Shown: positions 9,318-50,531 of the stretch, piece after piece
Layout of the letters: every line of letters starts with the position of its first letter
How positions within the stretch are numbered: the first letter of the stretch is position 1
Assembly (NCBI GenBank): GCA_965248765.1
Contig: CBDFKF010000003.1
Location: 386,257 to 450,256, forward strand
Source: Alphaproteobacteria bacterium
GTDB lineage: Bacteria; Pseudomonadota; Alphaproteobacteria; VGEJ01
Direction of reading: 5' to 3'
DNA length: 64,000 nt
Made by a program: the position numbers and the translations under genes
The notes under the pieces: generated by a model
What the model saw: only the letters and a program-made list of their open reading frames with translations
What the model was told of the DNA's origin: nothing
Database searches by the model: none

Positions 9318-9452
9318 ATGCCACGTGATATCGGCGAATGGCTTGAAGGGTTGGGTCTCTCCAAGTACGCGCCCGCGTTCGCCGAACAGGAGATCGCTCT
9401 GCGCGATGTGGTGCGGCTGATGGCCAAGGCACTGCTCGAGGAGTTGGGTTGA
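9318..9452 (+). CDS. 44-aa SAM-domain-like micro-ORF
   Basis: MPRDIGEWLEGLGLSKYAPAFAEQEIALRDVVRL resembles the N-terminal SAM domain of adenylate/guanylate cyclases. Its stop overlaps the next ATG (TGATG). Could be a gene remnant. Confidence 0.3.
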   Translation: MPRDIGEWLEGLGLSKYAPAFAEQEIALRDVVRLMAKALLEELG

Positions 9453-25056: not shown

Positions 25057-26612
25057 GACCGTGTGGAAACTCTGGGTGGCGGGGATGGAGGTTTAGGTAA
25101 CCATGATTTGCGGCGATCCCACGTAATCTGGCGGTTTGGCGCCGGTAGCCCTGTGGAAGGGGCTCCAGGCCTCCGTGGATCGATGTGCGGCGCTCGATTT
25201 TGGCCTGATTCCCGTCTCATGCCCTCGCGGCGGCGATCAAGGCGGGAACACCTACCAGCGAGATCGCGCGGCGGATGTTGTAAGCCAGCGCCGTGATGCT
25301 GAACTCGCCGCGCACGTTCTCCAGCCGCCGGGTCAGGAAGGCACCCTGGCCCATCCATTGTTTGATTGAGCCGAAGGGATGCTCGACGCTTTCACGGCGC
25401 GCATCGAGCAGCTCCGGGCGGGCCGCCAATCGTTCTGCCATGCGCTCCAGGATCGCTTCGGCGCTTGCGCTTGCTGTGTAGCGCCAGGCGTTGGCCGTCG
25501 GGGCAGATGTAAATGTCCTCGCCGCCGTCATAGCGGAAGCGTTCCTTGGGAAAGAGCCCCTGGCTCACCGTGGATCCGCGCTGGGGCTTGGGCACATGCG
25601 GCACGACGCCGGCATTCTCGCAGGCCTCGATATCCTCGATCTTGAAGTAGCCCGCGTCGGCGACCGCGTCGATCCGATCGACGGCCAGGTTCCGACGGGC
25701 CACCACCGCCGTCTCGGCCAATAGACCGAGATCGCTGACCTTGTTATGGACCTGCTGCTCGGCGATCAGTTTGTGCTTGGCGTCCACGGCGATCTGAATG
25801 TTGTAGCCGACACCGACCCGGGTCTCGGCGTACATCGCCCGGCTGTCCGGATCCGTCAAAGAGAGCTGGTCCTCGCCACTCGCAGCCAGCGCGTCTCGAT
25901 GTTCCTCAAACCGCTCACGCCGCCCTTGGATCGCAGCGATCTTCTCCTGGATATGCTCCACCTCGCCGCCGCCGGTGCCGCCCTCGTCTTGCTCGTCGGC
26001 CTCGTCGAGCCGGTCGAGATAACGCGACAACCTCTCGTCGCTCTCGGCCAACGCCTTCGCCAGCTTCGCTTTGGTGAAGTTCCGCTTCCGGCTGTTCACT
26101 GCCTTGATCCGTGTACCGTCAACCGCCACCAGCTCGCGTCCGAACAGCTCCAGTTCGCGGCATAGCCTCACGAACTCCCGAAACACCTGTCGGAAGGCCG
26201 CCCGATTGATCCGCCGGAAATCGGCGATCGTCTTGAAGTCTGGCGACAAACGCCGCAACAGCCAGATCACTTCGAGATTACGCTTGCTCTCTGCCTCCAG
26301 CCGGCGGCTCGAACGTACCCGATTGAGATAGCCGTATATGTAGAGCTTCAGCAGGTCCGCCGGATCGTAGCCGGGACGACCTATCGCCTTCGCCGCGGCG
26401 CGCTCGAAACCAGCGGCCGCTAGGTCCAAACCATCCACGAAGGCATCGATGAAACGGACCGGGTTATCCCGGCCCACGTAATCGTCCACTGCTTCCGGCA
26501 GAAGCAGAACCTGAGAGCGGTCAACGCCAGGAATGTGTCTCATGGCGGACCCTAACATCGCCATGAGACGGACGGAATCCCCCGCCACCCAGAGTTTCCA
26601 CACGGTCTGCAT
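25057..26612 (-). mobile_element. IS1182-family insertion sequence (about 1.56 kb) inside the transketolase N-subunit gene
   Basis: Perfect 30-bp terminal inverted repeats CAGACCGTGTGGAAACTCTGGGTGGCGGGG at 25058-25087 and rc at 26583-26612. The flanking sequences (ttcaccATG | gATGggcaag) indicate a target duplication of about 3-4 bp. The host reading frame is restored across the junction (DRDRFTM-GKGHAA). Confidence 0.8.
25217..26564 (-). pseudogene. IS1182 family transposase (frameshifted near 25500)
   Basis: N-terminal motifs RSQVLLLPEAVDDYV…YDPADLLKLYIYGYLNRVRSSRRLE…DFKTIADFRR and C-terminal VEHPFGSIKQWMGQGAFLTRRLENVRGEFSITALAYNIRR are in two different frames. The upstream part is read as a fusion with the transketolase fragment in the ORF track. 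Confidence 0.7.
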
Positions 26613-26822
26613 GGTGAAGCGGTCGCGATCGGTCCAATCGGGCTGATCGGCGCGGATGTTCAGAAGCTGGTAGTAGAGCACCGTCACGAGTTCGGCCATG
26701 GAGAACGCCGAGCCATAGTGACCCGAGCCGCAGATGTCGGTGAGCCGCACGGTCTCGCGGCGGATCATCTTGGCTTTCTCGACCAGCTCGGCCTTGGCGA
26801 TGTTGCGAACGGGGCGCGACAT
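26613..26822 (-). pseudogene. transketolase N-terminal subunit, 5' fragment (first 69 codons)
   Basis: ELVEKAKMIRRETVRLTDICGSGHYGSAFSMAELVTVLYYQLL…PDWTDRDRF is the canonical transketolase N-terminus, ending at the IS inverted repeat. Confidence 0.8.
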
Positions 26823-34067: not shown

Positions 34068-35610
34068 TCAGATGTCTGAGACCTCGCGCAAGGACCGCTC
34101 GGTCTCGTCATCGTCGGGCGGATCGCCTGCGTCGTTGGCTTGCGCGACGCCGGTCTTGGTGACCCGCCTCGGGTCGGAATCGAGCACGATGCCAAGCTCA
34201 TCGAGCTTCTCGTTCATGGCCGCGATCTCGGCCAGCACCGCGTCGGGGTTGCGGCCCTTGCGCGCGATCGCCTCGGCCAGGGTCGTGGTGCCCGAGCGCA
34301 GCGCCAGCAGATCGGCCATGGCGTCTTTCTGCGGGTCGACCGCCTCGAACTCGGGCGGCGACCAGTCGACGCGCACGATGGGCTCGGGGACATGCCCCGC
34401 CGCCCAGGCGGCCTCGGTAAACCAGCGCCACACCGGCGTACAGAACATCGGGATGAAGAGCTGCCACTGGACCGCATCGATCATGCGGCGGAACTCAACC
34501 AGCCCGGCCCGGATCGAGGAGTAGTTGACCTGACTTAGATCGCCGGTCAGCAGCTCGTAGGGCACCCGGAACCCGGCGCCAACGGTATGCAGGCTCGCCC
34601 GCTTGTACTCGGCGTAGCCGCCGGTGGCGGCCGGCTGGTTGAAGCGGATCTCCTTGCTGCCGCGGGCATAGGCGATGAGGCCGGGCTCGAACTGCTCGAC
34701 ATGGTTACCGTCGGCGTCCACCACCGTCGGCGCGATGCCCTGCTCGGCCTCGTCTGCGCCGAGCACAATGGCGGTCACGCAGGCCTCGGTCTTCTTGCGC
34801 ACGATCTCGGCGACCTCGTAGTCGTCGACATCGCGAAGCGCCCGGATGACCGGCGCGCCCCACGGCACGCCGCGGGCCTGGGTGCGCTGCTTCTCGTAGA
34901 CATGGGCGATCTCGGCCGCCGGCACCGGCTTGCTCTTGAAGCCGCCGCGTCCGCCGCCGACGAGGGCGCCGAAGGCATCGCCCGGATGACGGTCATGGAG
35001 CCAGTAGGCGCGGCGCTTGCCCAGCGCGTCGAACTCAATCCCCTGCACCGCCTGACGACCGTTACCGAGGGCGCCGGTCTTGCCTGCATCCAGAAAATCC
35101 GCCTCGAGCACCTGCAGTTGGACCGGGACCGCGAGGCCGTCGGAAGCCCGGCGGGCGCGCCGGCGCACCAGCACCTCACCGGCTTCGACCATCTCGTGGC
35201 ACGCAAGCGTCTGCAGGCCGTAGAAATCGAGCTGACCGTCACTGTCACAAGCGCCGGTCCAGTCCTCCCACAGCTTGTTGACGGTCTTGTCGAGCGGCCT
35301 CGTCGCCGGTCGCGGCGCGCGGCATGATGCCGGCGCCGACGATGTTGTTGACCAGCACCGCCACCGCCTTGGCGGCGTGCGGGTTGTTGCGCACCAGATC
35401 GCGCATGCGGTCGCGCAGGAGCGCGCCGGCCACCGCGATCTCACCGTCGGCCGAGCTCGCCGCCGCACGCCAGCCCTCGGTACGCCGGCCCCTGGCCGCG
35501 CCCTCGTAACCCCGGGTGAGCCCCTCGAAGGCCTGGCGGGCCAAGAGACGCCGCGTCGCCGCACGGGGCGATACCGTGGCGATCGCCCGGTCGAACCAGC
35601 TCGCGCCCAT
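34068..35610 (-). pseudogene. phage portal protein, lambda (gpB) family, frameshifted near 35300
   Basis: The C-terminal 400 aa carry lambda-portal motifs (…QVNYSSIRAGLVEFRRMIDAVQ…). The N-terminal 121 aa (MGASWFDRAI…GDEAAR) are in another frame (ORF 35245-37086) and join at …GDEAAR | PLDKTVNKLWEDW. Start overlaps the gpW stop (ATGA). Confidence 0.75.
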
Positions 35611-35819
35611 CAGCGGTCGCCCCGCTTGAACCGGGCATAGCCCACCATCGGAGATGCCTTGCCAGTGCTGCCGATGGCGCGCTCGATGGTGCGGATACGG
35701 GCCAGCAGGTCCTGGGCGGAGCCGTATTCGACGGACTTGCCGTCGTAGCTCACGCGCAGCGTGCCGCTGGCGTAGGCGCGCCGCAGCGCCGCCAGCTCCG
35801 TCTCGGTCCAGTCGCTCAT
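35610..35819 (-). CDS. phage head-tail joining protein gpW family
   Basis: 69 aa. MSDWTETELAALRRAYASGTLRVSYDGKSVEYGSAQDLLARIRTIERAI matches the gpW fold family, and it is placed between terL and portal as in lambda. Confidence 0.6.
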   Translation of the reverse strand: MSDWTETELAALRRAYASGTLRVSYDGKSVEYGSAQDLLARIRTIERAIGSTGKASPMVGYARFKRGDR

Positions 35820-35821
35820 TC

Positions 35822-37844
35822 CAACCATCCTCCCGGTGGCCCAGCCAGTCCGAGCGCCGCTTGTTGCCGGTAGGCGCCGATGGCGGCCGGTTGACGATGC
35901 CGGCGGTCGCGTCACCGTCGCCGGCGACGCCCGCCTGCGCCTCGAGATCGGCCCACTTGGCCTCGCCCCAGCGGTCGGCGCCGGCGATCCAGGCGGCGGC
36001 CCGGGCATAGACCCGGCAATCCAGCGCCTCGTTGCGCTCGCGCATCTTCTGCCATTCGAGCCGGGCGAAGCCGCGCCGTGTGCGCACCGTCACCAGCTGC
36101 TCGGCGACGAACTGCTTGAGCCATTCGTCCTCGATCCAGTGGGGCAGATGCACGCTGCCCGACGGATACACCTTGCCCTCGGCGCGCTCTTCTTCGGTCG
36201 GGCGTTCGAGCCTCAGGAAACGATAGGTCTCGGCCTTGAAGGTCGAGACGGCGACGGTCCAGAGCCGGGCGCCGCGACGCAGCCGCTTGCCGCCGTCGGA
36301 AACATCGACATAGGTCGGCCCCGAGACCGGGCTCGACCGGTTGAAGCCGTCGGTGCCCTTGACCGGGGCGACTTGCACGATCCCGGCGCGCCGTGCCCAG
36401 GCGTAGACGGCGGTCGGCTCGTAACCGGTATCGATGGAAAGCTTCGCCAGACCCAGCGCGGCGGCGTTCTCATGGGGCCAGGTTTGGCCAAGCAGCCGGT
36501 CGAGTTCGGCCCAAGGCTCGGCTCGCTCGGGCCGCCCTCGATGACGACATGATCGATCAGCCAGCTTTCCAGGCCGCGGCCCCAGACCCAGACATCGACC
36601 TCGATACGGTCCTTCTGCACGTCCGCGCCGGCGGTGAGGAAGAGCCCGCCGGCGGGCACCGTGCCCGGCAACCAGCGCTCCCGGCGATCGTAGAGCCGCT
36701 GCCAGTCGGGCGCTTCGCCGCTCTCGACCCAGGTCTCGCCGAGGATGGTGTTCTTGAACGCACGGACGCGCTCCAGGTCGCTCGAACCGGTGGCGCTCCC
36801 TGTCGCGCCGTCGGACCCTTGGGCCGCCACCCAGGCGCGCGCGATGGCCTCCCATGAAAGCCAGCCGACCGGCGAATAGAGCGCCGAGAGATGAAACCCG
36901 ATGGTCGTGGGATCGGTTGCTTCCGCCGTCGCCCGCCACTCGCCCGCCGCCAGCATCGCCGTCTTGTGGTGCTCGGCGATCGCCTCGTCGCAGGATGCGC
37001 AATGGTAGGCCGCCGTCTCGGGCTTGCCCTTGTCCCAGCGGAGCCGCTCGAAGGCGAGCCATTGCCGATGTCCGCAATGGGGGCACGGCACGAAGTAGCG
37101 ACGCTGGTCCGAGGCCTCGTACTCGCGCTCGATGCGCGAAAAGCCCTTTACCGTCGGCGTCGAGATCAGCAACACCTTGCGCCGGTGGGCGAAGGTGAGC
37201 GAGCGGGCTTCCGCCAGCGTCACCGGGTCGCCTTCCTCGTCCGCCGAGGCCGGATAGGCGTCGACCTCGTCCAGGAGGATGTAGCGCGCCGGGATCGAGC
37301 GCAGACCGACCGCCGAGTTGGCCCCGGTCATGATCAGGATGCCGCCGGCGAACTCCTTCGACAGCATGGTGTTGCCGGCATCGCGCGAATGCGCCGGCCG
37401 GACCAAACCTCGGAGCGCCGCGCTCTCCTCGATCAGCGGATCGATGCGCTGGCGCGAGTTGCGCTTGGCCAGCTCCACCGTCGGCTGGACCGCCAGCATC
37501 GGTCCCGGCGCCTGGTGGATGACAAAGCCGATAAAGTTATTGGCTCCCTCGGTCGCGCCGACCTGTGCTGCCTTCATGAACACCACCCGCCGGCACGGAT
37601 CCGCCGGTGACAGCGCGTCCATGATGGCCCGCATGTAGGGCGTGCGTGCGATGCGGTAGCGCCCCGGCTCCGCCGACGCCCTTGCTGCCAGCATGCGGTG
37701 CCTCTCGGACCATTCCGAGACGCTCAACAGCGGGTCCGGCGTCAACCCGTCGCGCCAGGCGCGGGCGATGTCGTCCGCGCCGGCGAAGGCCTCAGCGGAA
37801 CTCGGGCCGGATCTCGGCGAGCTCATTGAGATGATCTCGGACAT
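35822..37844 (-). pseudogene. phage terminase large subunit, GpA (lambda) family, frameshifted near 36535
   Basis: N-terminal ATPase (…VVFMKAAQVGATEG…) and the LLDEVDAYP and CPHCGHRQ zinc-finger motifs lie in ORF 36213-37844. The C-terminal nuclease part (…ERAEPWAELDRLLGQTW…TGYEPTAVYAWARR…) continues in ORF 35245-37086. A 1-nt deletion relative to the duplicate copy at 49341 sits in a ggcggccc run. The 3' end is approximate. Confidence 0.75.
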
Positions 37845-38370
37845 GGGCCTCCAGAACCTTCTGCATGGCGTGCGTATCGAGGCCGAGATCGGCCGCCATC
37901 AGGGCGGCGACGCGGGCCGGCCAGTTGACCCAGGCATCGCGCTCACGGCGCGCGAGGCGGAACACCTCGACCGTCGCGTGGGCCCGGTCGACCACTTCCT
38001 CGCGCAGGCGCTGCACCTGAATGCGAGCCCGCTGCGCCTTGGCGATCTCGTGCGCGGTGCGCGCCTGGGTGAAGGTTGCGGCCCCTTGCGGGGCGGGTTC
38101 GGTTGCGGCGGGCGGTGGTGCTCCGGCAGCCTCGCCACCGGGCTTGTCCGGATCGGAGGCCCGTGGGGTCTCGTCAGCTTGTGCGGGCTCGTCCTCGGGC
38201 GGCTCGGACCGGCGCGCCGGATCGGTTCGAGCGTCCCATTGGGCGTCCGCCTTGTCCGGATCGAGGGTGCCGTCGGGCTCGGGCGTGAGCCGGCCCGCGC
38301 GGATCGCCTTCATCACCGCGACGTGGCTCACCCCGCGCCGGCGCGCGTATTCCCGCAGCGATACGCCCAT
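37792..38370 (-). CDS. phage terminase small subunit (HTH-containing)
   Basis: N-terminal HTH LREYARRRGVSHVAVMKAIRAGRL. Overlaps the terL start by about 50 bp. 192 aa. Confidence 0.55.
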   Translation of the reverse strand: MGVSLREYARRRGVSHVAVMKAIRAGRLTPEPDGTLDPDKADAQWDARTDPARRSEPPEDEPAQADETPRASDPDKPGGEAAGAPPPAATEPAPQGAATFTQARTAHEIAKAQRARIQVQRLREEVVDRAHATVEVFRLARRERDAWVNWPARVAALMAADLGLDTHAMQKVLEAHVRDHLNELAEIRPEFR

Positions 38371-38470: not shown

Positions 38471-38998
38471 ATGGCCCAGACACTCACCGGCACCGAACGC
38501 GACGCGCTCACCGCGGCCGCCAAGCGCCCGGACGGGCGCATCCACCCGCTGCCCAAAAACATCGATGCCGACTTGCTGGTCGGCGGTCTCGTTGTGCGCG
38601 ACCTGATCGAGCAGGTGCCCGACGAGCGCCCCGGCTTCGATCCCTTCCTGCGCATCAACTACCAAGGCCTCAAGGCGCTGCATGCCGATCCGGACGGGAG
38701 CGCATCGGCCGACGAGCCGGGCGGCAAGACCGCACTCGAAACCTTCATCGCCGGCCAGTACGAGTTCGACGACCTGCTCGGGCGGCTGAGAGACGCGTGC
38801 GGCGTTCACTTCAACGTCGACCCCGAGCGGGTCGATTGGGCCGCCGTCGGGACGCTCTACATGCGCCTCGCCAGCCTGCGCACCCTTTGCGACCACGTCT
38901 TCAAGGAAGGCGAGCACGCCGAACCGGCGGGCGGTCACGACGGACACGCTTTCAACGCGGACGGCCGCAAGGTCGCCGTCTGCGTGCCAACCGACTGA
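38471..38998 (+). CDS. DUF3489-related protein (N-terminal paralog of the next gene)
   Basis: The N-terminus ERDALTAAAKRPDGRIHPLPKNI parallels ILSAAAQRDDGSIHPLPKTL of the downstream gene. The C-terminus diverges. Confidence 0.5.
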   Translation: MAQTLTGTERDALTAAAKRPDGRIHPLPKNIDADLLVGGLVVRDLIEQVPDERPGFDPFLRINYQGLKALHADPDGSASADEPGGKTALETFIAGQYEFDDLLGRLRDACGVHFNVDPERVDWAAVGTLYMRLASLRTLCDHVFKEGEHAEPAGGHDGHAFNADGRKVAVCVPTD

Positions 38999-39106: not shown

Positions 39107-39679
39107 ATGAAACTCACCGACACCAAAATGATCATTCTCTCGGCCGCCGCCCAGCGCGACGACGGCTCGATCCACCCGCTGCCCAAGACGCTCAAGGGCG
39201 GGGCCGTCACCAAGGTCACCGGCGCGCTGCTGCGCCGTGGCCTGATCGCCGAGGCGCCGCGCCGGAACGGTACTGCCATCGGCGAGACCAACTTCGCCAT
39301 CACGGCCGAGGGCGCGCTCGCCATCAACGTCGAGCCGGCCGAGTGTCCCCATTTATCCGACACGGGCGCACAGGTGGCCGACGGTGGCCGGGAGGCCGAG
39401 CCGGCGGCGGACATCCCGCCCAAGGCGAAGAAGGCCGCCACGGGCCGCGGCACGGCGAAGGGGCCGGTCAAGGTCCGCACCGGCACCAAGCAGGCTCTCG
39501 TGGTCGAGATGCTGCGGCGGCCCGAAGGCGCGACCGTCGATCAGATCATGGAGGCCACCGGCTGGCAGCGCCACACGGTGCGCGGCGCCTTCGCCGGCGC
39601 GCTCAAAAAGAAACTCGGCGTCACCGTCACCTCGGAAAAGGTAGCGGATCGCGGTCGCATCTACCGCGTTGCCGGTTGA
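39107..39679 (+). CDS. DUF3489 domain protein
   Basis: The C-terminal signature ATGWQRHTVRGAFAGALKKKLGVTVTSEK…RIYRV is characteristic of DUF3489, which is common in alphaproteobacterial prophages and ICEs. Confidence 0.6.
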   Translation: MKLTDTKMIILSAAAQRDDGSIHPLPKTLKGGAVTKVTGALLRRGLIAEAPRRNGTAIGETNFAITAEGALAINVEPAECPHLSDTGAQVADGGREAEPAADIPPKAKKAATGRGTAKGPVKVRTGTKQALVVEMLRRPEGATVDQIMEATGWQRHTVRGAFAGALKKKLGVTVTSEKVADRGRIYRVAG

Positions 39680-41710: not shown

Positions 41711-42850
41711 ATGAGAAAAATCGGGCCCGACTCAATCAGAGTGGCCATCGCCGGCGTCGGCAACTGCGCGAGTTCCCTTGTCCAGGGGTTGGAATACTAC
41801 CGGGGCCGTAACGAGGAGTCATTCAGCGGTCTTATGAACGCAAAGATCGGCAACTGGGGGCCGAGCGACATCGAGATCGTGGCCGCCTTCGATATCGACC
41901 GCCGCAAGGTGGGTAAGTTGGTGGAGGAGGCGATTTTCGCCCAACCCAACTGCACCAAGGTCTTCCAGAGCACCCTGCCGGTATCCGACGTGGTGGTGCG
42001 GATGGGGCCGGTTCTCGACGGAGTGGCGCCTCACATGGCCGACTATCCCGATGACGAGGCTTTCCGACCTTCCAACGAGCAACCGGTCGATGTTGTCCAG
42101 GTCCTCAAGGAGGCCGAGGCCGAAGTTCTGGTCTGCTACATACCGGTAGGTTCGGAAGAGGCGGTTCGGCACTATGCCCGGGCCTGCCTGGAGGCCGGAG
42201 TGGCCATGGTCAACTGCGTTCCGGTTTTTATCGCCTCCGACCCCGAATGGGTTGAGAAATTCTGTCACGCCGGCCTGCCCATCGTCGGCGACGACATCAA
42301 AAGCCAGGTCGGCGCCACCATCGTGCATCGAACCCTGACCCGCCTGTTCGGTGACAGGGGCGTGCCACTTGACAGAACCTATCAGTTGAACACGGGCGGC
42401 AACACGGACTTTCTCAACATGAAGGCCCTCGATCGACTGAAGTCCAAGAAGGTTTCCAAGACGGAATCCGTGCAGTCGCAGTTGGACGAACGTCTGGAAT
42501 CCCGGGACATCCATATCGGACCGTCCGATTACGTGCCGTGGCAGGACGACAACAAGGTCGCTTTCATCCGCATGGAGGGGCGCGGCTTCGGGGACGTGCC
42601 GTTGGAACTGGAACTCAGACTGTCGGTCCAGGATTCCCCCAACAGCGCGGGCGTGGTCATCGATGCCATCCGTTGCGCCAAGCTGGGGCTGGAGCGCGCA
42701 ATCGGCGGCTCCTTGGAAGCCGCTTCCGCCTATTACATGAAGAGCCCGCCGAAGCAGATGCGTGATTCGTTGGCCTATGAATTGACCGACGCATTTATTC
42801 AAGGCGGAGATGTCGGCGAGGGGACATCTCGAACGGACGCCGATGACTAG
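41711..42850 (+). CDS. ino1: myo-inositol-1-phosphate synthase (bacterial/archaeal type)
   Basis: NAD-binding N-terminus IAGVGNCASSLVQGLEYY and conserved catalytic region (…NTGGNTDF…). Start at ATG 41711 after a GGAG ribosome-binding site. Local GC is about 58-60% against 68% background. Confidence 0.85.
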   Translation: MRKIGPDSIRVAIAGVGNCASSLVQGLEYYRGRNEESFSGLMNAKIGNWGPSDIEIVAAFDIDRRKVGKLVEEAIFAQPNCTKVFQSTLPVSDVVVRMGPVLDGVAPHMADYPDDEAFRPSNEQPVDVVQVLKEAEAEVLVCYIPVGSEEAVRHYARACLEAGVAMVNCVPVFIASDPEWVEKFCHAGLPIVGDDIKSQVGATIVHRTLTRLFGDRGVPLDRTYQLNTGGNTDFLNMKALDRLKSKKVSKTESVQSQLDERLESRDIHIGPSDYVPWQDDNKVAFIRMEGRGFGDVPLELELRLSVQDSPNSAGVVIDAIRCAKLGLERAIGGSLEAASAYYMKSPPKQMRDSLAYELTDAFIQGGDVGEGTSRTDADD

Positions 42851-43665
42851 GTCGTGGACTCATAATGCCTGAGCCACAGACGTATGGAAGCAAGTGCCAC
42901 GGCGGCGAGGAAATTTCTGGCGAGTTTGTCGTAGCGCGTGGCGACGCGTCTGAAGTGTTTGATCTTGTTGAAGAAGCGCTCAACGAGGTTGTGTTGGCGG
43001 TAGAGCTCCGGAGCAACGTAGCGTGGCATCCGTACATTGCTCTGCGAGGGGATGTGGGCGGTGGCGCCGGTGTTCTCGATCAGCTCGATGAGGCAGCGGG
43101 CACTGTAGCCGCGGTCGGCGATGACATCACGCGCCAGGCGCAGTCCTTCGAGCAGCACCGGGGCTGTGGTCTTGTCGGAGGCCTGGCCGGCAGTGAGCAG
43201 CAAGCGCACCGGCAGGCCCCTGGCATCCACCACCGTGTGGATCTTGGTGCTCAGTCCTCCACGAGAACGACCGATGGCGTGATCCGGACCCCCTTTTTTC
43301 CCCCGGCGGCGTGTTGATGCGCGCGTACAATCGAGGAGTCGATGAGGTGAAGAGAGGCGGGCGATTTCTCGGCGAGAGCCTCGAACACACGCAGCCACAC
43401 GCCGGCCTTGGCCCAACGATTGAACCGGTTGTAGACCGTCGTGTGGGGCCCGTAGCGCCTCGGCAGATCGCGCCACGGCGAGCCCGTGCGCAGGGTGTAG
43501 AAGATACCGTCCACCACACGGCGGTCGTCCACACGCGGCACTCCGCGTGGCTTGTTCGGAAGCAACGGCGCGATGATCGCCCACTCCGCGTCGCTCAGAT
43601 CGAAACGTGCCATTCTCAAGCTCCCACAATTTGGGAACTTGAATCATATCTCCCCGTAAAGGGGA
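42840..43665 (-). mobile_element. IS5-family (IS427-group-like) insertion sequence immediately 3' of ino1
   Basis: Two overlapping transposase frames with an A6G slippery site. Boundaries are approximate because the inverted repeats were not confidently resolved. Confidence 0.65.
42847..43619 (-). CDS. IS5 family transposase OrfAB (programmed -1 frameshift)
   Basis: orfA (43251-43619, MRMARFDLSDAEWAIIAPLLP…) and orfB (…GKKGGPDHAIGRSRGGLSTKIHTVVDARGLP…DDE…). The GGGGAAAAAAGGGGG heptamer region lies at about 43293-43307 on the coding strand. Confidence 0.75.
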
Positions 43666-43674
43666 ATCCCCTTT

Positions 43675-44559
43675 ATGGGTACAAGACCTAGACGCGACGG
43701 TCGGGCTGCCAACAATGGTCCGGGCGGTGGCAACACAGTCCGGACTGTGGACGCGCCGTGGGTGGAGCTGCTGCTCGCGCTCCACTGCCAGGTGCGGAAC
43801 GCGCTCGCGAAGGCCGGCCGCGGCAGCACCGGGGCCACCAACCCCAAGGGCGACGAGGTCAAGGTCTTCGACCTCGCCGCCAACGACGCGGCAGTGGCCT
43901 GCCTGAAGGCGGCGGCGGTTCCGCTGATTGTCCAATCGGAAGAGGCCGAGCCCCTGGAAATCGGCCGCGACCGGCCCCGCTATCGACTGATCCTCGATCC
44001 CGTGGACGGCTCCGACAACCGGGCGCGCGGGCTGCCGTGATCGGCCTTGTCTTGCGCCGTGCTGCCGGTCGACGCCCCCTTGCATCCCGACTGGGTCGAG
44101 GCGGCCCTGGTCGGGCCGCTCGAGGAGGAAACGCCCCTGATCGCGCTCAGGGGCTCCGGCGCCTGGCGCGGGAACGACCGGCTCGAATCCTCGGACGTTC
44201 GCGGCATCGCCGAGGCCATGATCTCGGTCGAGCTCAATCACTTTTCTTCGCCACCGGGCTTCGCCCGCATGATGGCCGCCGCCAGGGGGGTGCGGTGCTA
44301 CGGTTGCGCGTCCCGAGCCCTCTCCCTGGTTGCCGCTGGCGCCACCGACGCCCATGTGGACGTGCGTCGCCGTCTGACGGCGGAAAGCTATCTCGCCGCC
44401 GCGCGGCTGGTGACCGAGGCGGGGGGATGGATTGGCGGCCTCGACGGCACGCCCCTGGCGGAGGCCGAAGGCTTGACCGACCGCATCTGCTTGATCGCGG
44501 CGGCGAGCCGGGATCTGTACGACGAAATCGTGGAGGTCTTGGGCGATGAAGGACACTGA
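43675..44559 (+). pseudogene. inositol monophosphatase (IMPase/FBPase) family phosphatase with an in-frame TGA
   Basis: DPVDGS motif (metal-binding DPIDGT). TGA at 44038-44040 interrupts the conserved block GLP-*-SALSCAVL. The downstream part (44041-44559) is in the same frame. Confidence 0.7.
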
Positions 44560-45911
44560 GTTGGCGAACGCGGCGCCGGAGGTGGCGCTGATATTGGCCG
44601 CCGGGCTGGGGATCGCGGCTTCGTCCGCAAATCAACACGCCGAAGCCCCTGATCAGGGTGCTCGGACTGAGCCTCGCCGAAAGGGTCATCTGCACGTTGC
44701 TGGCTGCCGATGTTTGGCGGTTCCTCGTCACCCTAGGCCATGAGGCCGAAAGGGTCAGGGCGCATTTTTCCGATATCGCCCGGCGTCGCGGTGTCACGGT
44801 CGACTTCGTCGAAGTCGAGGGCTGGGAGCGGGGTAACGGCGCCAGCGCCCTTGCGGCTAAGGCTCACATCGGCGACGCGCCTTTCTTCGTGGTCATGACC
44901 GACCATCTTTTCGACCCCGGGATTGCGGGGGCACTGACCGACGACCCGCCCGCACCAGGAGAAATGTGCCTCGCCGTGGACTGTGACAAGGACGCCATCT
45001 TCGATCTCGACGATGTCACCCGAGTCAAGATCGACGACGGACGCATTCAGGCGATCGAGAAAAACCTTGGCGATTGGGATGCAGGCGACGTCGGGGTCAT
45101 GCTCTGCACGTCGGGCCTGTATGAGGGTCTCGAGCGCGCGGCGGCAAGAAACGAGCATGGGCTTTCCGACGGGCTCAGGGAACTGGCGGGCGAAGGCCGG
45201 GCGAGAACCGTCGATGTGACTGGAATGTCATGGCTCGACGTGGACACGCCCGACGCATTGCGTGAAGCCGAACGACGTCTGATGCGCGACCAGGGTCGCA
45301 AGACCCGGGACGGGCCGGTGTCGCGCCATCTCAACCGGCCGGTTTCCCGGTGGTTGAGCCGCTATCTGGTGCGCACAACGGTGACGTCCAACCAAATCTC
45401 TCTGATCTCGTGGATGCTGTCGTGCGTTGCCGCAGGATTGATGGCTGTGAGCGGTTATCCTGCTCTGGCCGCCGGTGGCGCCTTGGCTCAACTGGCCTCG
45501 ATCATCGACGGCTGCGATGGCGAGATCGCCCGGTTGAAACGATCCCAGAGCGAGTTTGGCGGCTGGTTCGACGCGGTCCTCGACCGGTATGCCGATGCCT
45601 TTCTCTTGTTCGGCCTGATGTGGCACGAATATGCCGCGACCGGCACGAATCTACCCGTCGTGCTGGGGTTCGCGGCGATTATGGGGTCGTTCCTGAACAG
45701 CTACACGGCCGACAAATACGACGGCCTGATGGCCAGGAAATTCCCTGGCGTTGTCTATCTCAGGCTGGGCCGGGACGTCCGGGTTTTCGTCATCTTCCTC
45801 GGCGCCCTTTTGAATCAGCCCTTGCTCACCCTGGGCGTTATTGCATTAGTGATGAATGTGGAAGTGGTCCGGCGGATCGGTGTTAGTTCCCGCGCGGACG
45901 AAAAACGATGA
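44546..45911 (+). CDS. bifunctional nucleotidyltransferase / CDP-alcohol phosphotransferase (IPCT/DIPPS-like), frameshifted in the N-terminal G-loop
   Basis: N-terminus MKDTELANAAPEVALILAAGLG then frame +1 gives SRLRPQINTPKPLIRVLG (NTP-transferase motif). The C-terminal membrane domain has DGCDGEIARL…G…D…D, the CDP-alcohol phosphotransferase signature. An indel sits in a ggggatc run near 44615. Confidence 0.75.
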
Positions 45912-46953
45912 AGCACCCCCCTGAATTCCGCGGGTTCGAGAGAAGCCGGGAATGACCGGCGGGACGGGATCGGGACCGTCGTCAGCTTCTCCAAAGGACA
46001 CGACGAGGACAACCCAGGCACCCTGGATCCTGAGATGCGGGAATTCGCTCTCGGGATCTACCGTCTCGACGACCGTCCGATTGTAGTTACCGACGTGGAT
46101 CGGGTGCTGGACATCACGGTCCAATAAGAATGGATCAAATATCAGCCAATCGGGCACCAATGTTGTGAGACGATGAGAAAGCCAGGAATTGAGATCGGGG
46201 ACAGATTGGTGAAGCTTGGGGGGCTGAAACTGTTTTGATCGTGCAGCGGTTCGTCAATCCTCCTGGTCTGCCCCGGCATGTTGAGCTGAAAGCCCAGGGG
46301 CATCTCGACCGAAAAATCACGCTGTCCGTATCAACCATCATGGACCGGAATTTGTACCGGCGGGTCGAGAAACACTGATCAAGGATTGTGGTATTATACA
46401 AAGAAGGGGTACGAAAAATTTGCCATGTCTGACGTTGCCGATCGGAAAGCGTTCGTTCAAGGTGTGATGGGTAAGGTGGATTCAACGATTGAGAGTTCGC
46501 TTCCAGTCTTTTCGGGGGGTGTCAACGGCGGAGCAAAAAGGGACCCCGTGGCGGAGTAAAAAGGGACCACTTGGCGGCTGCGGGCTTGTCCTCGTAGTCC
46601 ATGGGAGGGCCCCGCGCGCGACGCGGCGTGCCCACAACAGGCTGACGCGGCGGCGCGCGCACGGTCTGTCTCGCCGCGGCCGATGACTGGCTCAACCAGA
46701 ACGAGACCGACGAGCGCGCGCACAAGAGCCGGGGCTGGCTCAATCAACCGGCAACCGAGAAGCAGATGCGCTACCTCCCGCCGGCATGCCGCCACGACTA
46801 CGGCATGAACCGTTATCAGGCATCGGCGCTGCTCACCTTCACCTTCAACAAGCAAGCGATCCGCCGGCTGGTCATGAACGCGGCGGGCGACCAGAGAGAG
46901 GCCGCGTGATGGTTGTCCCACGGCCGCACTCACTCACTCCCATTGGAGTCGTG

Positions 46954-47412
46954 CTAGGCGACCCCGACAACCAGACGCTTGCCGAACACCGCCAGCGCGT
47001 CCTCGATACGTCCGATCTTCGAGGCGTGCTCCGGGTTCAAGAGGCGCCGAACGTCGCTTTCGTGGACCCCCATATGCTTGGCCAAGGCGACCTTGGTCAT
47101 GCCCGAGGTGCGCAGTTCGATATAAAGCGCCGCCTTGGCAGCGATCACCGCCGGCGCTGCGACCATCGGGCGCCCGCGCGCCGGCGACGGCGCGGGGATT
47201 TCGGCCCCTTCGATCATGGTGGTGGCGAGAAGTTCGCGCAGGAGGTCCGACGCTTCCGTCAGCGCCTCGTCACGATCAGCCCCGTCGGTCGCACCCCATC
47301 CGAAATCGGGGAGGGTTACGACAACGCGCCCGTCCTCGTCAGTTTCCAATTTTGCGGGGTAGGCAAACGCCGCCCGCGATGCTGGATATCGTGCCATAGC
47401 GACCTGCCTCAC
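46954..47412 (-). CDS. hicB: type II toxin-antitoxin system HicB family antitoxin
   Basis: N-terminal HicB/UPF0150 fold (ARYPA…LETDEDGRVVVTLPDFGWGATDGADRDEALTEA) plus a C-terminal Xre-type HTH. Confidence 0.75.
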   Translation of the reverse strand: MRQVAMARYPASRAAFAYPAKLETDEDGRVVVTLPDFGWGATDGADRDEALTEASDLLRELLATTMIEGAEIPAPSPARGRPMVAAPAVIAAKAALYIELRTSGMTKVALAKHMGVHESDVRRLLNPEHASKIGRIEDALAVFGKRLVVGVA

Positions 47413-47424
47413 AGTTTTGAAACG

Positions 47425-47643
47425 TTATATCTCATCGCGTTTCAGCCCGAGGTCACGGAGCATCTTGCGAAGCAACCCCTTGCCAATTTCCTTCTTGCGG
47501 TCTTTGACCGTCGTCTTTCGGTCGCCGTAGTACAGCGTGCCGTGGCTACCGGGGCCTTCGGTGGCGGCGAAATAGACCTCGACGCCCCTCAGACGCCCAA
47601 GCTTCCGAATGGCACGTATGATTGGGCTCCCGTCATGATCCAA
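47425..47643 (-). CDS. hicA: type II toxin-antitoxin system HicA family toxin
   Basis: 72 aa. GSHGTLYYGDRKTTVKDRKKEIGKGLLRKMLRDLGL is the HicA dsRBD-like motif. Immediately upstream of hicB. Confidence 0.75.
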   Translation of the reverse strand: MDHDGSPIIRAIRKLGRLRGVEVYFAATEGPGSHGTLYYGDRKTTVKDRKKEIGKGLLRKMLRDLGLKRDEI

Positions 47644-47908: not shown

Positions 47909-49130
47909 GTGTTCAACCGCTTGGCCGAGCTGCCGGACGAGAGCGTGCATTGCGCGGTCACGAGCCCGCCATACTTTGCCCTTCGGGATTACGGCGTCGA
48001 GGGTGCCATCGGCCTCGAGCCGACTTTCGACGAGCACCTCGAGGTCATGGTCCGCGTGTTCCGCGAGGTCCGGCGCGTCCTGAGAAAAGACGGGACGCTC
48101 TGTCTCAACTACGGCGACGCCTACGCCGGTTCAACCAACGGACGCTCGGCCGCCGACACGAAGGCTCTCGGCAAGGATGACCGCACCTTCCGCGACAAGC
48201 CGTTCTCGACCGTGGGCGGCGTGTTCAAGCCCAAGGACTTGATGATGATGCCCGGCAGGGTCGCGATGGCGCTTCAGGCGGACGGCTGCGACGTCGCCGC
48301 CGCCAGGGCGATCGATCGGGCGATGGAACGGATCGCTGAGGCCTGCGGCGACGCCCCGATCCCCGACCGGGTGCGCGTGACGCTCGAAGCCCTTCGAGCC
48401 GAATATGCCGAAGCCAAGGGGCACTCGTGGTGGCTGCGCAGCAGAGATCGTCTGGCACAAGCCGAATCCACGGCCGGAATCCGCGAAAGATCGGCCAACC
48501 AGCGCGCATGAGAAGGTCTATCTGCTCACCCGGAGCGCCCAGTACTTCTACGACGCCGAAGCGGTCCGTACCCCGGAGACCGGCGGCGCCCACGCTCGGC
48601 GCAAGGATGGGGAATACAAGCCCGCCAAGGGATCGGACCCGAGCAACCGCCGCGCCGGGACGTGGAAGGAACGGTCAGTGAAAATGCCCGACGGCTGGGA
48701 CACCGGCCCAGGCGCTCACGACAGTTTCCACTGGAAAGGTCGTGAAAAGGGCAAGCGAGCGCAGCCACCGCGCCATGAAGCGCACGGTCCGATGCACAAT
48801 GGGCTTGCAGCGTTGGACGAAGTTCCCAAGGCCGAGCAACAGGCGAATGGCGCGAACCTCCGCAACGTCTGGACTATCGCGATCGAGCCTTTTGCTGGCG
48901 CTCATTTTGCCACCATGCCTACGGCCGCGGTCGAGCCCTGCATCAAGGCGGGCTGTCCGGCAGGTGGCGTGGTGCTGGACCCCTTCGCCGGCGCCGGCAC
49001 CGTAGGTCTGGCCGCCGACCGCCTCGGCCGCGATGCGATCCTGATCGAGATCAACCCCGAATATGCCGACATGGCACGCAACCGGATTGCCGATGACGCG
49101 GGCATGTTCGCGGAAGTGGCGGCAGAATGA
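47909..49130 (+). CDS. phage-type DNA N4/N6-methyltransferase, frameshifted near 48430
   Basis: GTG start. TSPPY motif IV in frame 1 (47909-48511). EIVWHKPN and the C-terminal PFAGAGTVG (FxGxG) are in frame 2 (48405-49130). Confidence 0.75.
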
Positions 49131-49261
49131 GAGACGATCTGAGTGCCCTTGATTGGGCCAAGCTGGTGGTTGCCATTGTGGCTGTATTTGCCCCCATTTT
49201 AGCGGCGGGCATCCCGTTTGTTCACATGGTGTGGACGTTCTGGGCGGAGCTGCTGCTATGA

Positions 49262-49640
49262 CGTGGATGACCGCCGGCGCCGACGTGCAGAAGGACCGCA
49301 TCGAGGTCGATGTCTGGGCCTGGGGCCGCGGCCTCGAGAGCTGGCTGATCGAGCATATCGTCATCGAGGGCGGGCCCGAGCGGGCCGAACCCTGGGCCGA
49401 ACTCGACCGGCTGCTCGGCCAAACCTGGCGCTATGAGAACGGCGCCGCGCTGGCGCTCACCAAGCTCGCCATCGACACCGGCTACGAGTCGACCGCGGTC
49501 TATGGCTGGGCGCGCCGCGCCGGCGTCGCGCAGGTGGCCCCGGTCAAGGGCGCCGACGGCTTCAACCGGTCGAGCCCGGTCTCGGGTCCGACCTATGTGG
49601 ATGCGTCCGACGGTGGCAGGAGGCTGCGCCGCGGCAGTAA
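49262..49640 (+). repeat. inverted duplicate of an internal terminase large-subunit fragment
   Basis: TAGADVQKDRIEVDVWAWGRGLESWLIEHIVIEGGPERAEPWAELDRLLGQTW…GPTYVDASDGG corresponds to terL at about 36270-36640. It is about 90% identical at protein level and has the intact frame. Flanking sequence is unrelated. Confidence 0.7.
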
Positions 49641-49947
49641 ACAGCATGCCCGCCTCGATGCGCCCGTAGACGGTGAAGATCATTGCCTCGGCCGCCGGCA
49701 CCGTGGCCCCGACGGCGGCGGCGAAACGGTTCGCCAGCAATGCCCGGCGCCAATCCGCGAGCACCCACGCACGCAACGCCAGGCCTTGGTCGGCATAACA
49801 GCCGATAGTCACCTCGAGCGCGCGTTCGAGCTCGAAGTCGGCATCCAGCAAATCCGCGATCATGCGAAAGCAATCGACCCGCGCTTTGCGGCCGAACGCC
49901 AGCTTGGCGAGCCGCCTCTGGAAGGCGCGCGGCACAGCGGCGTTCAT
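49640..49947 (-). pseudogene. GspF/PilC/PilR-like inner-membrane platform protein, N-terminal fragment
   Basis: MIADLLDADFELERALEVTIGCYADQGLALRAWVLADWRRALLANRF resembles the T2SS/T4P GspF N-domain. Truncated where the terminase fragment starts. Confidence 0.4.
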
Positions 49948-50531
49948 CGCACCCCGCCATCGACGACGGTGAGCGGCGCCGCGAGTTCCCGTTCCGTGCG
50001 CGCCCCCTTGATGAGCGCGTCGAACGGATCGACGGCGCCCTCAGCCACCAGGCGCCAAATCTTCGTGCCGATCGGTGTACCGCCCATCCCATCGCGCCAC
50101 CAGGCCAAGGCGCCGAGCGGATTACAATCCCGCACGAAACCCAAATACCTCTCGTCAGGCAGGATCATCTCGGCCACCGCCTGTTGGCCCGTGTAGCCGT
50201 TCCAGGCCGCCTCAGCCAGCGCGGGGCTCGCGCCGGAAGTTCATGGCGCCGCCCCGGCGCCGGTGTCGATGAACTGCAGCACTTCGCGCGCCGTAGCGGC
50301 GGCGCGGATCTTCGAGACCATGCGGAAGGCCGGGTACACCCGGCAGAAATCCGTCAGCGTCTTGGCGAAGTGCTCCCTGGTTCCCGTGGGCCGCACCGCG
50401 CCTGAAATACGATAGTCCACCGGATCCTCGATCGTGACCAAATTAGGCTCGTTCCCCATCTCAACCATCTGCAAGTACAGCTTGCCACCGCCCGCGCGAT
50501 CAGGGGCGGCCGTGCCCGCCTTGCGCCCCAA
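49944..50531 (-). pseudogene. GspE/PilB/PilQ-type secretion ATPase, degenerate fragments
   Basis: LVTIEDPVDYRISG…AKTLTDFCRVYPAFRMVSKIR parallels the GspE xxTIEDPVEY…ALR..LRqDPDvImvGEiRD block. Only fragments survive, in more than one frame. Confidence 0.4.

Follow-up and report, generated by a model that had tools for sequence, protein, structure and literature searches.

A probable di-myo-inositol phosphate cassette, horizontally acquired and now decaying, in an uncultured marine alphaproteobacterium

Hyperthermophile gene sets for di-myo-inositol phosphate (DIP), such as the Thermotoga maritima cluster, combine a myo-inositol-1-phosphate synthase (MIPS), an IPCT/DIPPS protein and an IMPase-type phosphatase. 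IPCT/DIPPS islands are already known from cold deep-sea microbes as well: those of non-thermophilic Thaumarchaeota from hadal and deep sediments (with IMPase) have been read as osmolyte or pressure adaptation (PMC7265257, PMC8397731, PMC10773090). CDP-inositol also serves a lipid route, which has been demonstrated with BEPIS of Rhodothermus marinus and suggested for the alternative cluster of Bacteroides/Prevotella; two papers report MIPS+IPCT+transferase operons in Alphaproteobacteria (PMC4587543, PMC9246714, each citing Jorge et al. 2015). Among single enzymes, the closest comparisons are two Archaeoglobus fulgidus proteins, the validated IPCT/DIPPS AF0263 (PDB 4MND; IPCT domain 2XME) and AF2299 (PDB 4O6M), a CDP-alcohol phosphotransferase whose physiological substrates are not established (PMC4634129).

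Here we describe a dead bacterial copy of a MIPS-containing cassette, caught while being lost, within a 64,000-nucleotide stretch of DNA (the window). The host is an uncultured marine alphaproteobacterium of non-thermophile type, its cytochrome b finding close matches in uncultured Alphaproteobacteria only. Positions 41711-45911 hold three same-direction genes, for MIPS, a phosphatase and a fused cytidylyltransferase/CDP-alcohol phosphotransferase, which most likely represent a self-contained DIP-type operon that was horizontally acquired and is now decaying. Start and stop codons overlap at both gene junctions, and the cassette genes form a compact 3.4-kb unit; the three identities, proposed earlier in a sequence-only reading, are borne out by Pfam and NCBIfam matches. 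As in the hyperthermophile DIP sets, the same three enzyme families are present and the phosphatase is of the archaeal/thermophile IMPase-FBPase type; unlike them, this unit is overlapping and mobile, and MAGs from cold water and sediment that span many phyla carry it. With the Thaumarchaeota islands it shares a fused IPCT/DIPPS, an extra IMPase nearby, small acquired size and a non-thermophilic host, whereas it is bacterial, includes MIPS, is near-identical across bacterial phyla and is being lost. The rarity outside thermophiles implied by the sequence-only reading does not hold, since the fused-protein family comprises about 480 clusters (50% identity) at E<=1e-30 and the closest copies are from cold marine environments, in addition to the published deep-sea islands.

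The only intact cassette gene in the window is that for MIPS, a myo-inositol-1-phosphate (inositol-3-phosphate) synthase of 379 aa (41711..42850, plus strand), whose ATG is preceded by GAGGAG. It matches PF01658 (E 3e-34) and the full TIGR03450 model (464 bits over 1-355, below the cutoff of 638), and is 98-99% identical to the copies in the three closest loci (L001-L003), with four amino-acid changes specific to the window. The ATG of the phosphatase pseudogene (42843..44559, plus strand) overlaps the MIPS stop; almost every cassette conserves an in-frame GTG at -63, which also overlaps the MIPS stop, and in several relatives the -0 position has no start codon. With its in-frame TGA taken as Leu, the product scores 122 bits on NF009321, and its closest PDB matches are P. 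horikoshii PH1897, P. furiosus 1xi6, M. jannaschii MJ0109 and A. fulgidus AF2372; its role is presumed to be that of a DIPP phosphatase.

The fused gene (44546..45911, plus strand; frameshifted, 454 aa once repaired) begins inside the phosphatase 3' end with a 14-nt overlap and joins NTP-transferase and CDP-OH-P-transferase domains in one protein. The CDP-alcohol signature D-GC-DG-EI-AR-x8-G-x3-D-x3-D lies at 45507-45584, confirming the motif noticed earlier (DGCDGEIAR...G...D...D), and the proposed IPCT/DIPPS architecture is upheld, each half scoring best on the IPCT/DIPPS model NF041135: the N-terminal half reaches 114.5 bits (runner-up 66) and matches 2xme at E 1.6e-22, and the membrane half reaches 131.8 bits, where archaetidylinositol-P synthase gives 86 and PIP synthases give 60-65. 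These membrane-half scores set the protein apart from CDP-DAG-dependent PIP synthases, in a comparison that comprised neither the characterised Rubrobacter, Aquifex and Thermotoga enzymes nor Rhodothermus BEPIS, and its N-terminal half is IPCT-like. Relative to AF0263, domain order is the same and residues 14-424 are colinear (4mnd, E 1e-51), with the GxGxRL nucleotidyltransferase motif, the full D1xxD2GxxAR...G...D3xxxD4 signature and NRxxS, PNQ, DGCDGEIAR, YTxxK and RDxR in both; identity is however only about 30-35%, the window host is of non-thermophile type, and the window copy is a pseudogene known from sequence. Across 77 family members there is little or no variation in the acceptor-site motifs NRxxS, PNQ, DGCDGEIAR, SYTxDK and RDxR, and all five are common to AfDIPPS and AF2299. 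Remote relatives with a fused HAD phosphatase retain SYT-x-x-K/R and GRDxR, which fits a phosphorylated product requiring a phosphatase.

From these homologies we infer the chemistry of the enzymes, and the product with it. In intact copies, MIPS would convert glucose-6-P to L-myo-inositol-1-P, and the N-terminal IPCT domain would use CTP to turn this into the activated form, CDP-inositol; from there the inositol-phosphate would be passed by the six-helix DIPPS domain to a second inositol-1-P, forming DIPP, and the IMPase-family enzyme would remove the remaining phosphate to yield DIP, an anionic compatible solute, as the predicted end product.

Three observations count against a DIP product. 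In PDB comparisons the membrane half is nearer AF2299 (136 bits) than AfDIPPS, the validated AF0263 (82 bits), with PIPS at 31 bits; the repaired protein scores 231 bits on NF041135 (positions 29-415 of 419), far under the equivalog cutoff of 580, though that model is Thermococcales-specific; and in a group further removed, whose fused protein is 45-54% identical, MIPS and the fused gene occur without an adjacent phosphatase.

Two other products deserve weighing. In a Kennedy-like route, inositol-phosphate would pass from CDP-inositol onto diacyl- or dialkyl-glycerol or ceramide, a possibility we consider unlikely. It draws on the MIPS+IPCT+transferase operons mentioned above, Alphaproteobacteria included (PMC4587543, PMC9246714), on a Sphingomonas megaplasmid operon (L081, which by gene content appears to be of the BEPIS type) whose NTP-transferase is 34% identical to the window's IPCT half, and on relatives at 38-42% identity fused to LPG_synthase_TM, which suggest a membrane-lipid role for part of the superfamily. 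The lipid operons of Rhodothermus, Bacteroides/Prevotella and Sphingomonas resemble the cassette in combining MIPS, an IPCT-like protein and a CDP-alcohol transferase, yet their genes are separate, there is no IMPase, and the transferase is related by the generic signature only and lacks DIPPS-type acceptor motifs. In particular, the stand-alone Sphingomonas transferase shows an identity of only 27% across 104 aa and reaches 23.5 bits with the DIPPS half of NF041135, where the window has 131.8; it contains a 38-residue insertion and is missing NRxxS, PNQ, DGCDGEIAR, SYTxDK and RDxR; the LPG-fused relatives are likewise missing SYTxDK and RDxR. Furthermore, a CDP-inositol lipid route needs no phosphatase, whereas the cassette contains an overlapping IMPase-type gene; its membrane domain is the six-helix core alone, typical of soluble-acceptor transferases (PMC4634129); and lipid genes are not recurrent in the flanks of cassette loci. 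If the membrane domain were AF2299-like rather than AF0263-like, the product would be another soluble inositol phosphodiester, for example glycero-phospho-inositol or a further-modified DIP. AF2299 is indeed the best structural match to the membrane half (residues 254-444) and was crystallised with CDP-glycerol (PMC4634129), and the two A. fulgidus proteins are similarly distant (0.62 for AF2299 and 0.65 for AfDIPPS). AF2299 shares all the acceptor-region motifs, but they occur in AfDIPPS too. What makes this product improbable as well is that the match is confined to AF2299 residues 175-364, that the AF2299 cytosolic domain is truncated and without a match to the window's complete IPCT-type cytidylyltransferase, and that MIPS is the only precursor supplier in the cassette, with no glycerol-phosphate cytidylyltransferase.

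Having set these alternatives against the DIP-type operon, which we continue to prefer, we turn to its decay. An IS5-family element (IS5_3/IS427-like; 839 bp; 42850..43688, minus strand), the only copy in the window, has inserted into a CTAG overlapping both the stop codon of MIPS and codon 3 of the phosphatase gene. Its minus-strand orfA (43251-43619) and orfB (ending at 42847-9) score 136 and 153 bits on NF033580, with PF13340 and PF01609 matches, and their frames meet at an A6G slippery run at about 43285-43300 on that strand. The imperfect terminal inverted repeats (GGTCGTGGACTCATAA and GGTCTTGTACCCATAA) and the TA duplicated at 42848-9 and 43689-90, read from the sequence, mark a real insertion, and the ~99% identical cassettes of L001-L003 lack the element and are continuous across the CTAG site. 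The IS5 element and HicAB module reported earlier as flanking are both present, the IS however lying inside the cassette. It separates the phosphatase after codon 2 (codon 3 is split; reading resumes at 43689). A premature TGA at 44038-44040, a TTA to TGA change, replaces a Leu (TTA, TTG or CTG) found in 34/34 relatives. The fused gene has gained one G in the run 44608-44611 (GGGG in the window, GGG in relatives), a +1 frameshift, and has lost an invariant proline at residue 281 (P281S; Pro in 76/76 relatives). Together these lesions make the pathway non-functional in the window. Inactivation, suspected earlier as partial, is thus real and was understated, two of the three genes being disabled; the osmolyte or inositol-lipid capability earlier credited to the organism does not follow from a locus of pseudogenes.

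Elsewhere the cassette is widespread. Of 80 loci, at least 30 contain it as a contiguous block, with MAG loci labelled as many phyla, and homology among loci ends at the cassette edges; no conserved genes are shared among the flanks, where the most recurrent Pfam families are transposases and integrases. Identity to the window is 98.9-99.2% for the intact cassettes of L001, L002 and L003, whose flanks have a GC of 60%, 52% and 50%, and such near-identical copies in unrelated marine bacteria indicate that the cassette moves between phyla. Several carriers are contigs of chromosome scale, which excludes mis-binning as the cause. Horizontal acquisition, as proposed earlier, is therefore supported by comparison of loci rather than by GC. 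The purported 58-60% GC island in a 68% chromosome is a weak signal: the window averages 66.2%, MIPS is at 60.3%, the fused gene at 62.0% and the phosphatase at 70.6%, and the cassette minus the IS is at 63.8% against 66.6% in the remaining window. Host genes are equally low (cytochrome b 61.6%, a GGDEF gene 62.3%), GC3 ranges overlap (cassette 74-86%, host 75-86%), and across hosts cassette GC is 52-70% against flank GC of 41-72%, the cassette forming a high-GC island in most other hosts. Composition on its own does not mark the island. Purifying selection acts on the cassette in other hosts (dN/dS of 0.11-0.25 between divergent cassettes). Among the three near-identical copies there are about 29 non-synonymous and 18 synonymous changes for the three genes together, with a fused-gene dN/dS > 1 on small counts; this excess suggests that even intact copies of the recent lineage may be under relaxed selection.

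Could the window's locus be functional, its frameshift and TGA being artefacts of sequencing or assembly, or else recoding events? The extra G does extend a short G homopolymer (GGG to GGGG), the right end of the IS brings an in-frame ATG (43675) from which the phosphatase could restart, and the distant two-gene cassettes need no dedicated phosphatase nearby. We nonetheless regard this as very unlikely, given three independent lesions plus loss of an invariant Pro inside 3 kb, an IS with proper termini, and a TGA at an invariant Leu, so that relatives have no Sec or readthrough codon there; the adjacent terminase, methylase and IS/transketolase chimera are likewise frameshifted or fragmented, fitting a pseudogene-rich genome. 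Scarcely credible is the view that the three genes are a native core of an alphaproteobacterial lineage. Cassette GC and GC3 do fall inside the host range, cassette GC matches flank GC in the high-GC alphaproteobacterial loci L005, L010, L021, L039, L043 and L050, and the related L021 contig (cytochrome b 76% identical) carries the cassette too; this type of cassette may have originated in Alphaproteobacteria. Against a native origin, however, the window is without synteny outside the cassette to any carrier, L021 included; the 99% copies occur where flank GC is 50-60%; the cassette sits between prophage remnants with a foreign cheW fragment; and identity to L021 is higher for the fused protein (83%) and for MIPS (85%) than for cytochrome b.

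Returning to the acquired operon, its neighbours in the window lie outside the pathway. The HicAB toxin-antitoxin pair (HicB, 46954-47412, PF15919/PF13560; HicA, 47425-47643, PF07927; both minus strand and at or just below Pfam cutoffs) is a neighbour outside the cassette, the region 46954-47643 not being found in any cassette-bearing locus compared. A plus-strand fragment at 45963..46130 (translation ...LDPEMREFALGIYRLDDRPIVVTDVDRVLDI*), which by eye resembles a CheW-like C-terminus, is instead hitch-hiking DNA that moves with the cassette: it is common to L002 and L003 at 96-99% downstream of their fused genes, and L026 carries it in the corresponding position at about 60% aa.

Three co-oriented genes occupy 41711-45911 of the window, a cassette recovered both by ORF listing and by family searches: a MIPS gene (41711-42850, 379 aa; PF01658, and TIGR03450 at 464 bits over the full length), an IMPase/FBPase-family phosphatase gene that survives as two ORF pieces of the same frame (43675-44040 and 44047-44559) divided by a TGA at 44038-44040, and a nucleotidyltransferase/CDP-alcohol phosphotransferase fusion whose ORF pieces (44546-44743 and 44658-45911) lie in different frames. 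MIPS, IPCT/DIPPS and an IMPase-type phosphatase together form the classical di-myo-inositol phosphate (DIP) set of hyperthermophiles, and the classical distribution of DIP is among (hyper)thermophiles. The DIP set is encoded together: the genes form one contiguous run in a single orientation, with overlaps between start and stop codons. With its TGA read as Leu, the phosphatase fits the archaeal bifunctional IMPase/FBPase model best (122 bits), and its best enzyme matches come from Pyrococcus, Methanocaldococcus and Archaeoglobus.

Once its frame is repaired, the fused protein is colinear with the IPCT/DIPPS of Archaeoglobus fulgidus (AF0263, PDB 4mnd; AfDIPPS) over residues 14-424 (E 1e-51), and it also matches the isolated IPCT domain, 2xme (E 1.6e-22). 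Taken alone, the N-terminal half scores 114.5 bits on the IPCT/DIPPS model NF041135 against 66 bits for the next family, so an IPCT-type nucleotidyltransferase domain is present. The C-terminal half is a CDP-alcohol phosphotransferase domain of the six-helix type, recognized by a complete signature (DGCDGEIARLKRSQSEFGGWFDAVLD, 45507-45584, of the form D1xxD2GxxAR...G...D3xxxD4), by a PF01066 match and by NF041135. This half alone reaches 131.8 bits on NF041135, against 86 for archaetidylinositol-phosphate synthase (AIPS) and 60-65 for phosphatidylinositol-phosphate synthase (PIPS); among PDB entries the membrane half prefers AF2299, a CDP-alcohol phosphotransferase of A. fulgidus (136 bits), to AfDIPPS (82 bits) and to a PIP synthase (31 bits). 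On these scores, and with the IPCT domain present, we rejected a CDP-DAG-dependent PIPS or AIPS. A grouping with those enzymes was looked for and not seen, each half scoring best on NF041135, and the IPCT/DIPPS architecture proposed by the sequence-only reading thus stands, as do its identities for all three genes, on family, NF041135 and PDB matches. The whole fused protein scores 231 bits on NF041135, under the equivalog cutoff of 580; because that model was built for Thermococcales only, the shortfall rules out the label of Thermococcales equivalog and not membership of the family. At the level of sequence, homology to the solved IPCT/DIPPS and AF2299 structures is unambiguous.

Among the three genes only MIPS keeps an intact reading frame. 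An IS5-family element inserted between MIPS and the phosphatase (42850-43688, minus strand) splits codon 3 of the latter, although its right end happens to provide an in-frame ATG at 43675. Further into the same gene, the TGA at 44038-44040 corresponds to TTA in the three nearest copies and to TTG or CTG in others, the site encoding Leu in 34 of 34 relatives. The fused gene reads GGGG at 44608-44611 where relatives have GGG, a +1 frameshift; removal of one G restores ...ALILAAGLGSRLRPQINTPKPLIRVLG... and with it a 454-aa protein and its LAAGLGSRL motif. Even so repaired, the protein carries Ser at residue 281 (P281S), a position that is Pro in 76 of 76 relatives. We considered whether the TGA might encode selenocysteine or be read through, and whether the fused gene might use programmed frameshifting, and rejected both, since relatives have Leu at the former site and no extra base at the latter. 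Within 3 kb the locus thus combines an insertion, a nonsense codon, a frameshift and a damaging substitution. The osmolyte capability that had been attributed to the organism is not borne out, given a phosphatase both IS-split and interrupted by TGA and a frameshifted fused gene: the DIP pathway is dead in this genome.

The inserted element has two minus-strand ORFs, 43251-43619 and roughly 42847-43299, that match NF033580 at 136 and 153 bits, both above cutoff, and whose frames join at an A6G slippery run. Its ends are terminal inverted repeats, GGTCGTGGACTCATAA and GGTCTTGTACCCATAA, and a duplicated TA lies on both sides, in a CTAG target. A preference for CTAG with a short TA duplication is characteristic of the IS5_3 (IS427-like) group, and it is to this group of the IS5 family that the element belongs by its two-frame DDE transposase, inverted repeats and TA duplication. 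The CTAG target falls exactly in the overlap of MIPS stop and phosphatase start. Nearly all cassettes keep a GTG that is in frame and overlaps the stop codon of MIPS (G-GTG-AnT-AG); its counterpart in the window is ATG 42843. Several relatives lack a start codon farther downstream, at the site of the first plausible internal GTG, and the phosphatase most likely starts, as far as such conservation indicates, 63 nt upstream of that site. These 63 nt 3' of the start are highly conserved across cassettes (site 42843-42850 and its equivalents in loci L001-L028), which, with the stop/start overlap, suggests translational coupling.

Base composition offers less than was first claimed. The locus had been described as a 58-60% GC island in a 68% GC chromosome; MIPS (60.3%) and the fused gene (62.0%) are indeed low, but the window stands at 66.2% and the phosphatase at 70.6%, so that the signal was overstated. 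With the IS (62.1%) removed, the cassette has 63.8% GC against 66.6% for the remaining window. Furthermore, low-GC host genes equal the cassette (cytochrome b, 61.6%; a GGDEF regulator, 62.3%) and GC3 ranges overlap, so composition alone is insufficient to establish foreign origin. The proposed horizontal origin is nevertheless right on other evidence: DNA similarity to the window ends at the cassette edges in every locus, and copies of about 99% identity sit in hosts of differing flank GC.

These comparisons draw on a scan of one genome per species, which yielded 80 loci. At least 30 of the 80 carry the same cassette in one contiguous piece and in the order MIPS, phosphatase, fused gene. In a group of more distant loci (45-54% identity), among them SAR324, Nitrospinota, Atribacterota, Actinomycetota and ANME-1 archaea, MIPS and the fused gene occur without the phosphatase. 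Metagenomes contain thousands of close relatives of the fused protein, whose wider family comprises approximately 480 clusters at E<=1e-30, and the rarity initially ascribed to the cassette was accordingly exaggerated. The window copy has three intact counterparts at 98.9-99.2% identity: L001, labelled as Alphaproteobacteria (flank GC about 60%), L002, labelled as Thermodesulfobacteriota (52-54%), and L003, a 1.7-Mb chromosome with the same phylum label (about 50%). Several carriers, including OZ245933, OZ252054, OZ244621, OZ253470 and OY760176, are contigs of chromosome scale, and the spread is therefore not explained by mis-binning. Across carriers the cassette ranges from 52 to 70% GC and its flanks from 41 to 72%; it is a high-GC island in most hosts and equals host GC in high-GC alphaproteobacterial carriers, for which reason high-GC Alphaproteobacteria may be the original home of this cassette type.

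Flanking genes are unconserved, the commonest recurring families being transposases and integrases; no conserved mobile vehicle recurs in the flanks, only an excess of assorted genes of these kinds. Searches of IMG/VR viral contigs yielded no copy and those of PLSDB plasmids no full-length copy, and Rfam and tRNA scans of the window returned no match, hence no riboswitch and no tRNA integration site. Just 3' of the fused gene, at 45963-46130, lies a fragment similar to the C terminus of a CheW-like protein. It has moved together with the cassette in the window, L002 and L003 and occurs again beside the cassette in locus L026 (1850-2075); it looks like a relic of an earlier genomic context. In L001, two identical, inverted IS6/IS26-type transposase genes (9445-10140 and 11842-12537) lie on either side of a prephenate dehydratase gene directly after the intact cassette, an arrangement that resembles a composite transposon.

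Between divergent cassettes, fused-gene dN/dS is 0.11-0.25, which argues that the gene is maintained by selection in other hosts; judging from such divergence, the cassette is under purifying selection in most carriers. Within the near-identical trio, the three genes together show about 29 nonsynonymous and 18 synonymous differences, with pairwise fused-gene dN/dS above 1 on these small counts, and this suggests relaxed constraint in the recently spread lineage.

Could the cassette instead make an inositol lipid? Two papers describe inositol lipids formed from CDP-inositol in Rhodothermus marinus, propose the same for a Bacteroides/Prevotella cluster, and report homologous CDP-inositol operons in Alphaproteobacteria (PMC4587543, PMC9246714). 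Our plasmid search returned one operon that fits the type reported for Alphaproteobacteria, on a Sphingomonas parapaucimobilis megaplasmid (L081; NZ_CP155750.1, 301402-304069), which encodes MIPS, an IPCT-like NTP-transferase and a CDP-alcohol transferase that stands alone, and no phosphatase. The NTP-transferase and the IPCT half encoded in the window are 34% identical; the CDP-alcohol transferase shares only 27% identity over 104 aa, scores 23.5 bits on the DIPPS half of NF041135 and lacks NRxxS, DGCDGE, SYTxDK and RDxR. All four motifs show little or no variation across 77 family members and are common to AfDIPPS and AF2299; the comparison covered these proteins and L081. With a fused architecture, an IMPase present and a transferase judged against the Sphingomonas type, a BEPIS-type operon was rejected. 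In PIP synthases, an arginine pair binds the phosphate of inositol-1-P (PMC4634129), and by analogy the NRxxS, SYTxDK and RDxR motifs of the acceptor region plausibly mark an inositol-phosphate acceptor. The acceptor motifs and the phosphatase inside the cassette favour a soluble phosphorylated product over a lipid: intact copies would make phosphorylated DIP (DIPP), which would then be dephosphorylated to DIP.

The wider family varies around this theme. Relatives fused to a HAD phosphatase (P0286, P0298, P0299, P0312 and P0380) retain the acceptor motifs as SYT-x-x-K/R and GRDxR; in those fused to LPG_synthase_TM (P0355 and P0357) SYTxDK and RDxR are gone, a hint of a distinct branch that may act on lipids. 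DUF4202 is a third, C-terminal domain in the distant relatives P0252 and P0266, the HAD and LPG_synthase_TM fusions being likewise C-terminal. Some cassette variants have an extra PfkB-family sugar kinase gene inside the cassette (L014:6955-7914, L016:7006-7914, L018:6112-7197), which could encode a putative inositol kinase supplying inositol-phosphate to the pathway. On one Thalassospiraceae MAG contig (L029), the fused gene occurs in tandem (162-1466 and 1606-2952), the copies 71% and 75% identical to the query.

Fused IPCT/DIPPS genes with an extra IMPase have been described in small acquired islands of hadal and deep-sediment Thaumarchaeota, where they are read as an osmotic or pressure adaptation (PMC7265257, PMC8397731, PMC10773090), and DIP genes are mentioned for SAR116 (PMC12262181). 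The locus in the window shares with those islands the fused IPCT/DIPPS and IMPase but is inactivated, and we therefore regard it as an inactivated example of an already described locus type. Within a limited literature search, we found no description of the compact bacterial three-gene cassette or of its near-identical cross-phylum copies. Record names indicate that carriers would inhabit deep-sea crust, vent, seep, sediment and sponge environments, and the name of one 99%-identical copy refers to Langseth Ridge, a sampling site of Arctic deep-water sponge grounds (PMC8826442). Overall, the sequence-only reading served well on gene identity, architecture and horizontal origin, and overreached on the organism's capability, the size of the GC signal and rarity.

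The interest lies in cross-phylum mobility rather than in the decayed window copy: bacteria whose flanks lie 16 GC points apart share a 3.4-kb operon for enzymes of hyperthermophile type, with nucleotide identity reaching 99%. It is quite possible, if a little short of probable, that the cassette is a promiscuous plug-in module for DIP, a solute taken as a marker of high-temperature life, and that cold-water bacteria of different phyla living side by side in deep-sea sponges, crust and sediment are now exchanging it. Purifying selection would preserve it in many hosts while others discard it, the window representing the discard step. If intact copies make DIP at near-zero temperatures, bacteria of the deep sea would use DIP generally, as a pressure or osmotic solute spread by recent inter-phylum transfer. 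The wider pattern raises the questions of whether DIP is heat-specific and of which solutes deep-sea and sponge-associated bacteria use, and the cassette offers a clean way to mark gene flow that has recently crossed phyla in such communities. For the window genome the consequence is slight, as the pathway is dead; the right annotation is one gene, two pseudogenes and an IS, not an osmolyte capability.

The cassette host is evidently an uncultured alphaproteobacterium; cytochrome b in the window has close matches only among uncultured Alphaproteobacteria, and the best named relatives, Marinibaculum and Oceanibacterium, are 70-74% identical. The cassette sits between prophage remnants. Upstream are gpA terminase and portal genes (35245-37844, minus strand) together with a DUF3489 gene and a methylase fragment (minus strand); HicAB, a methylase gene with a frameshift (47909-49130) and another gpA nuclease fragment follow downstream. 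The remnants are lambda-type, span 35245-38370 and 47909-50196 in opposite orientation, and include several frameshifted or fragmented genes. The terminase fragments of the two remnants, at 36271-36635 and 49270-49635, are 86-93% complementary and constitute an inverted repeat with 12.6 kb between its arms. We considered synteny with the related L021 genome, including a segment flipped by this 36.3/49.3-kb repeat, and dropped the idea because only one gene matched (61393-61979).

Elsewhere in the window, a 476-aa minus-strand ORF (25392-26822) joins an N-terminal transketolase fragment to IS5-type transposase domains (DUF772, DDE_Tnp_1), probably by insertion of an IS into the transketolase gene, and is a further sign of a pseudogene- and IS-rich genome. 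Two adjacent small paralogues (38471-38998 and 39107-39679), the second with DUF3489, share a conserved N-terminal segment and contain a direct repeat of 78% identity (38507-38556 and 39137-39186).
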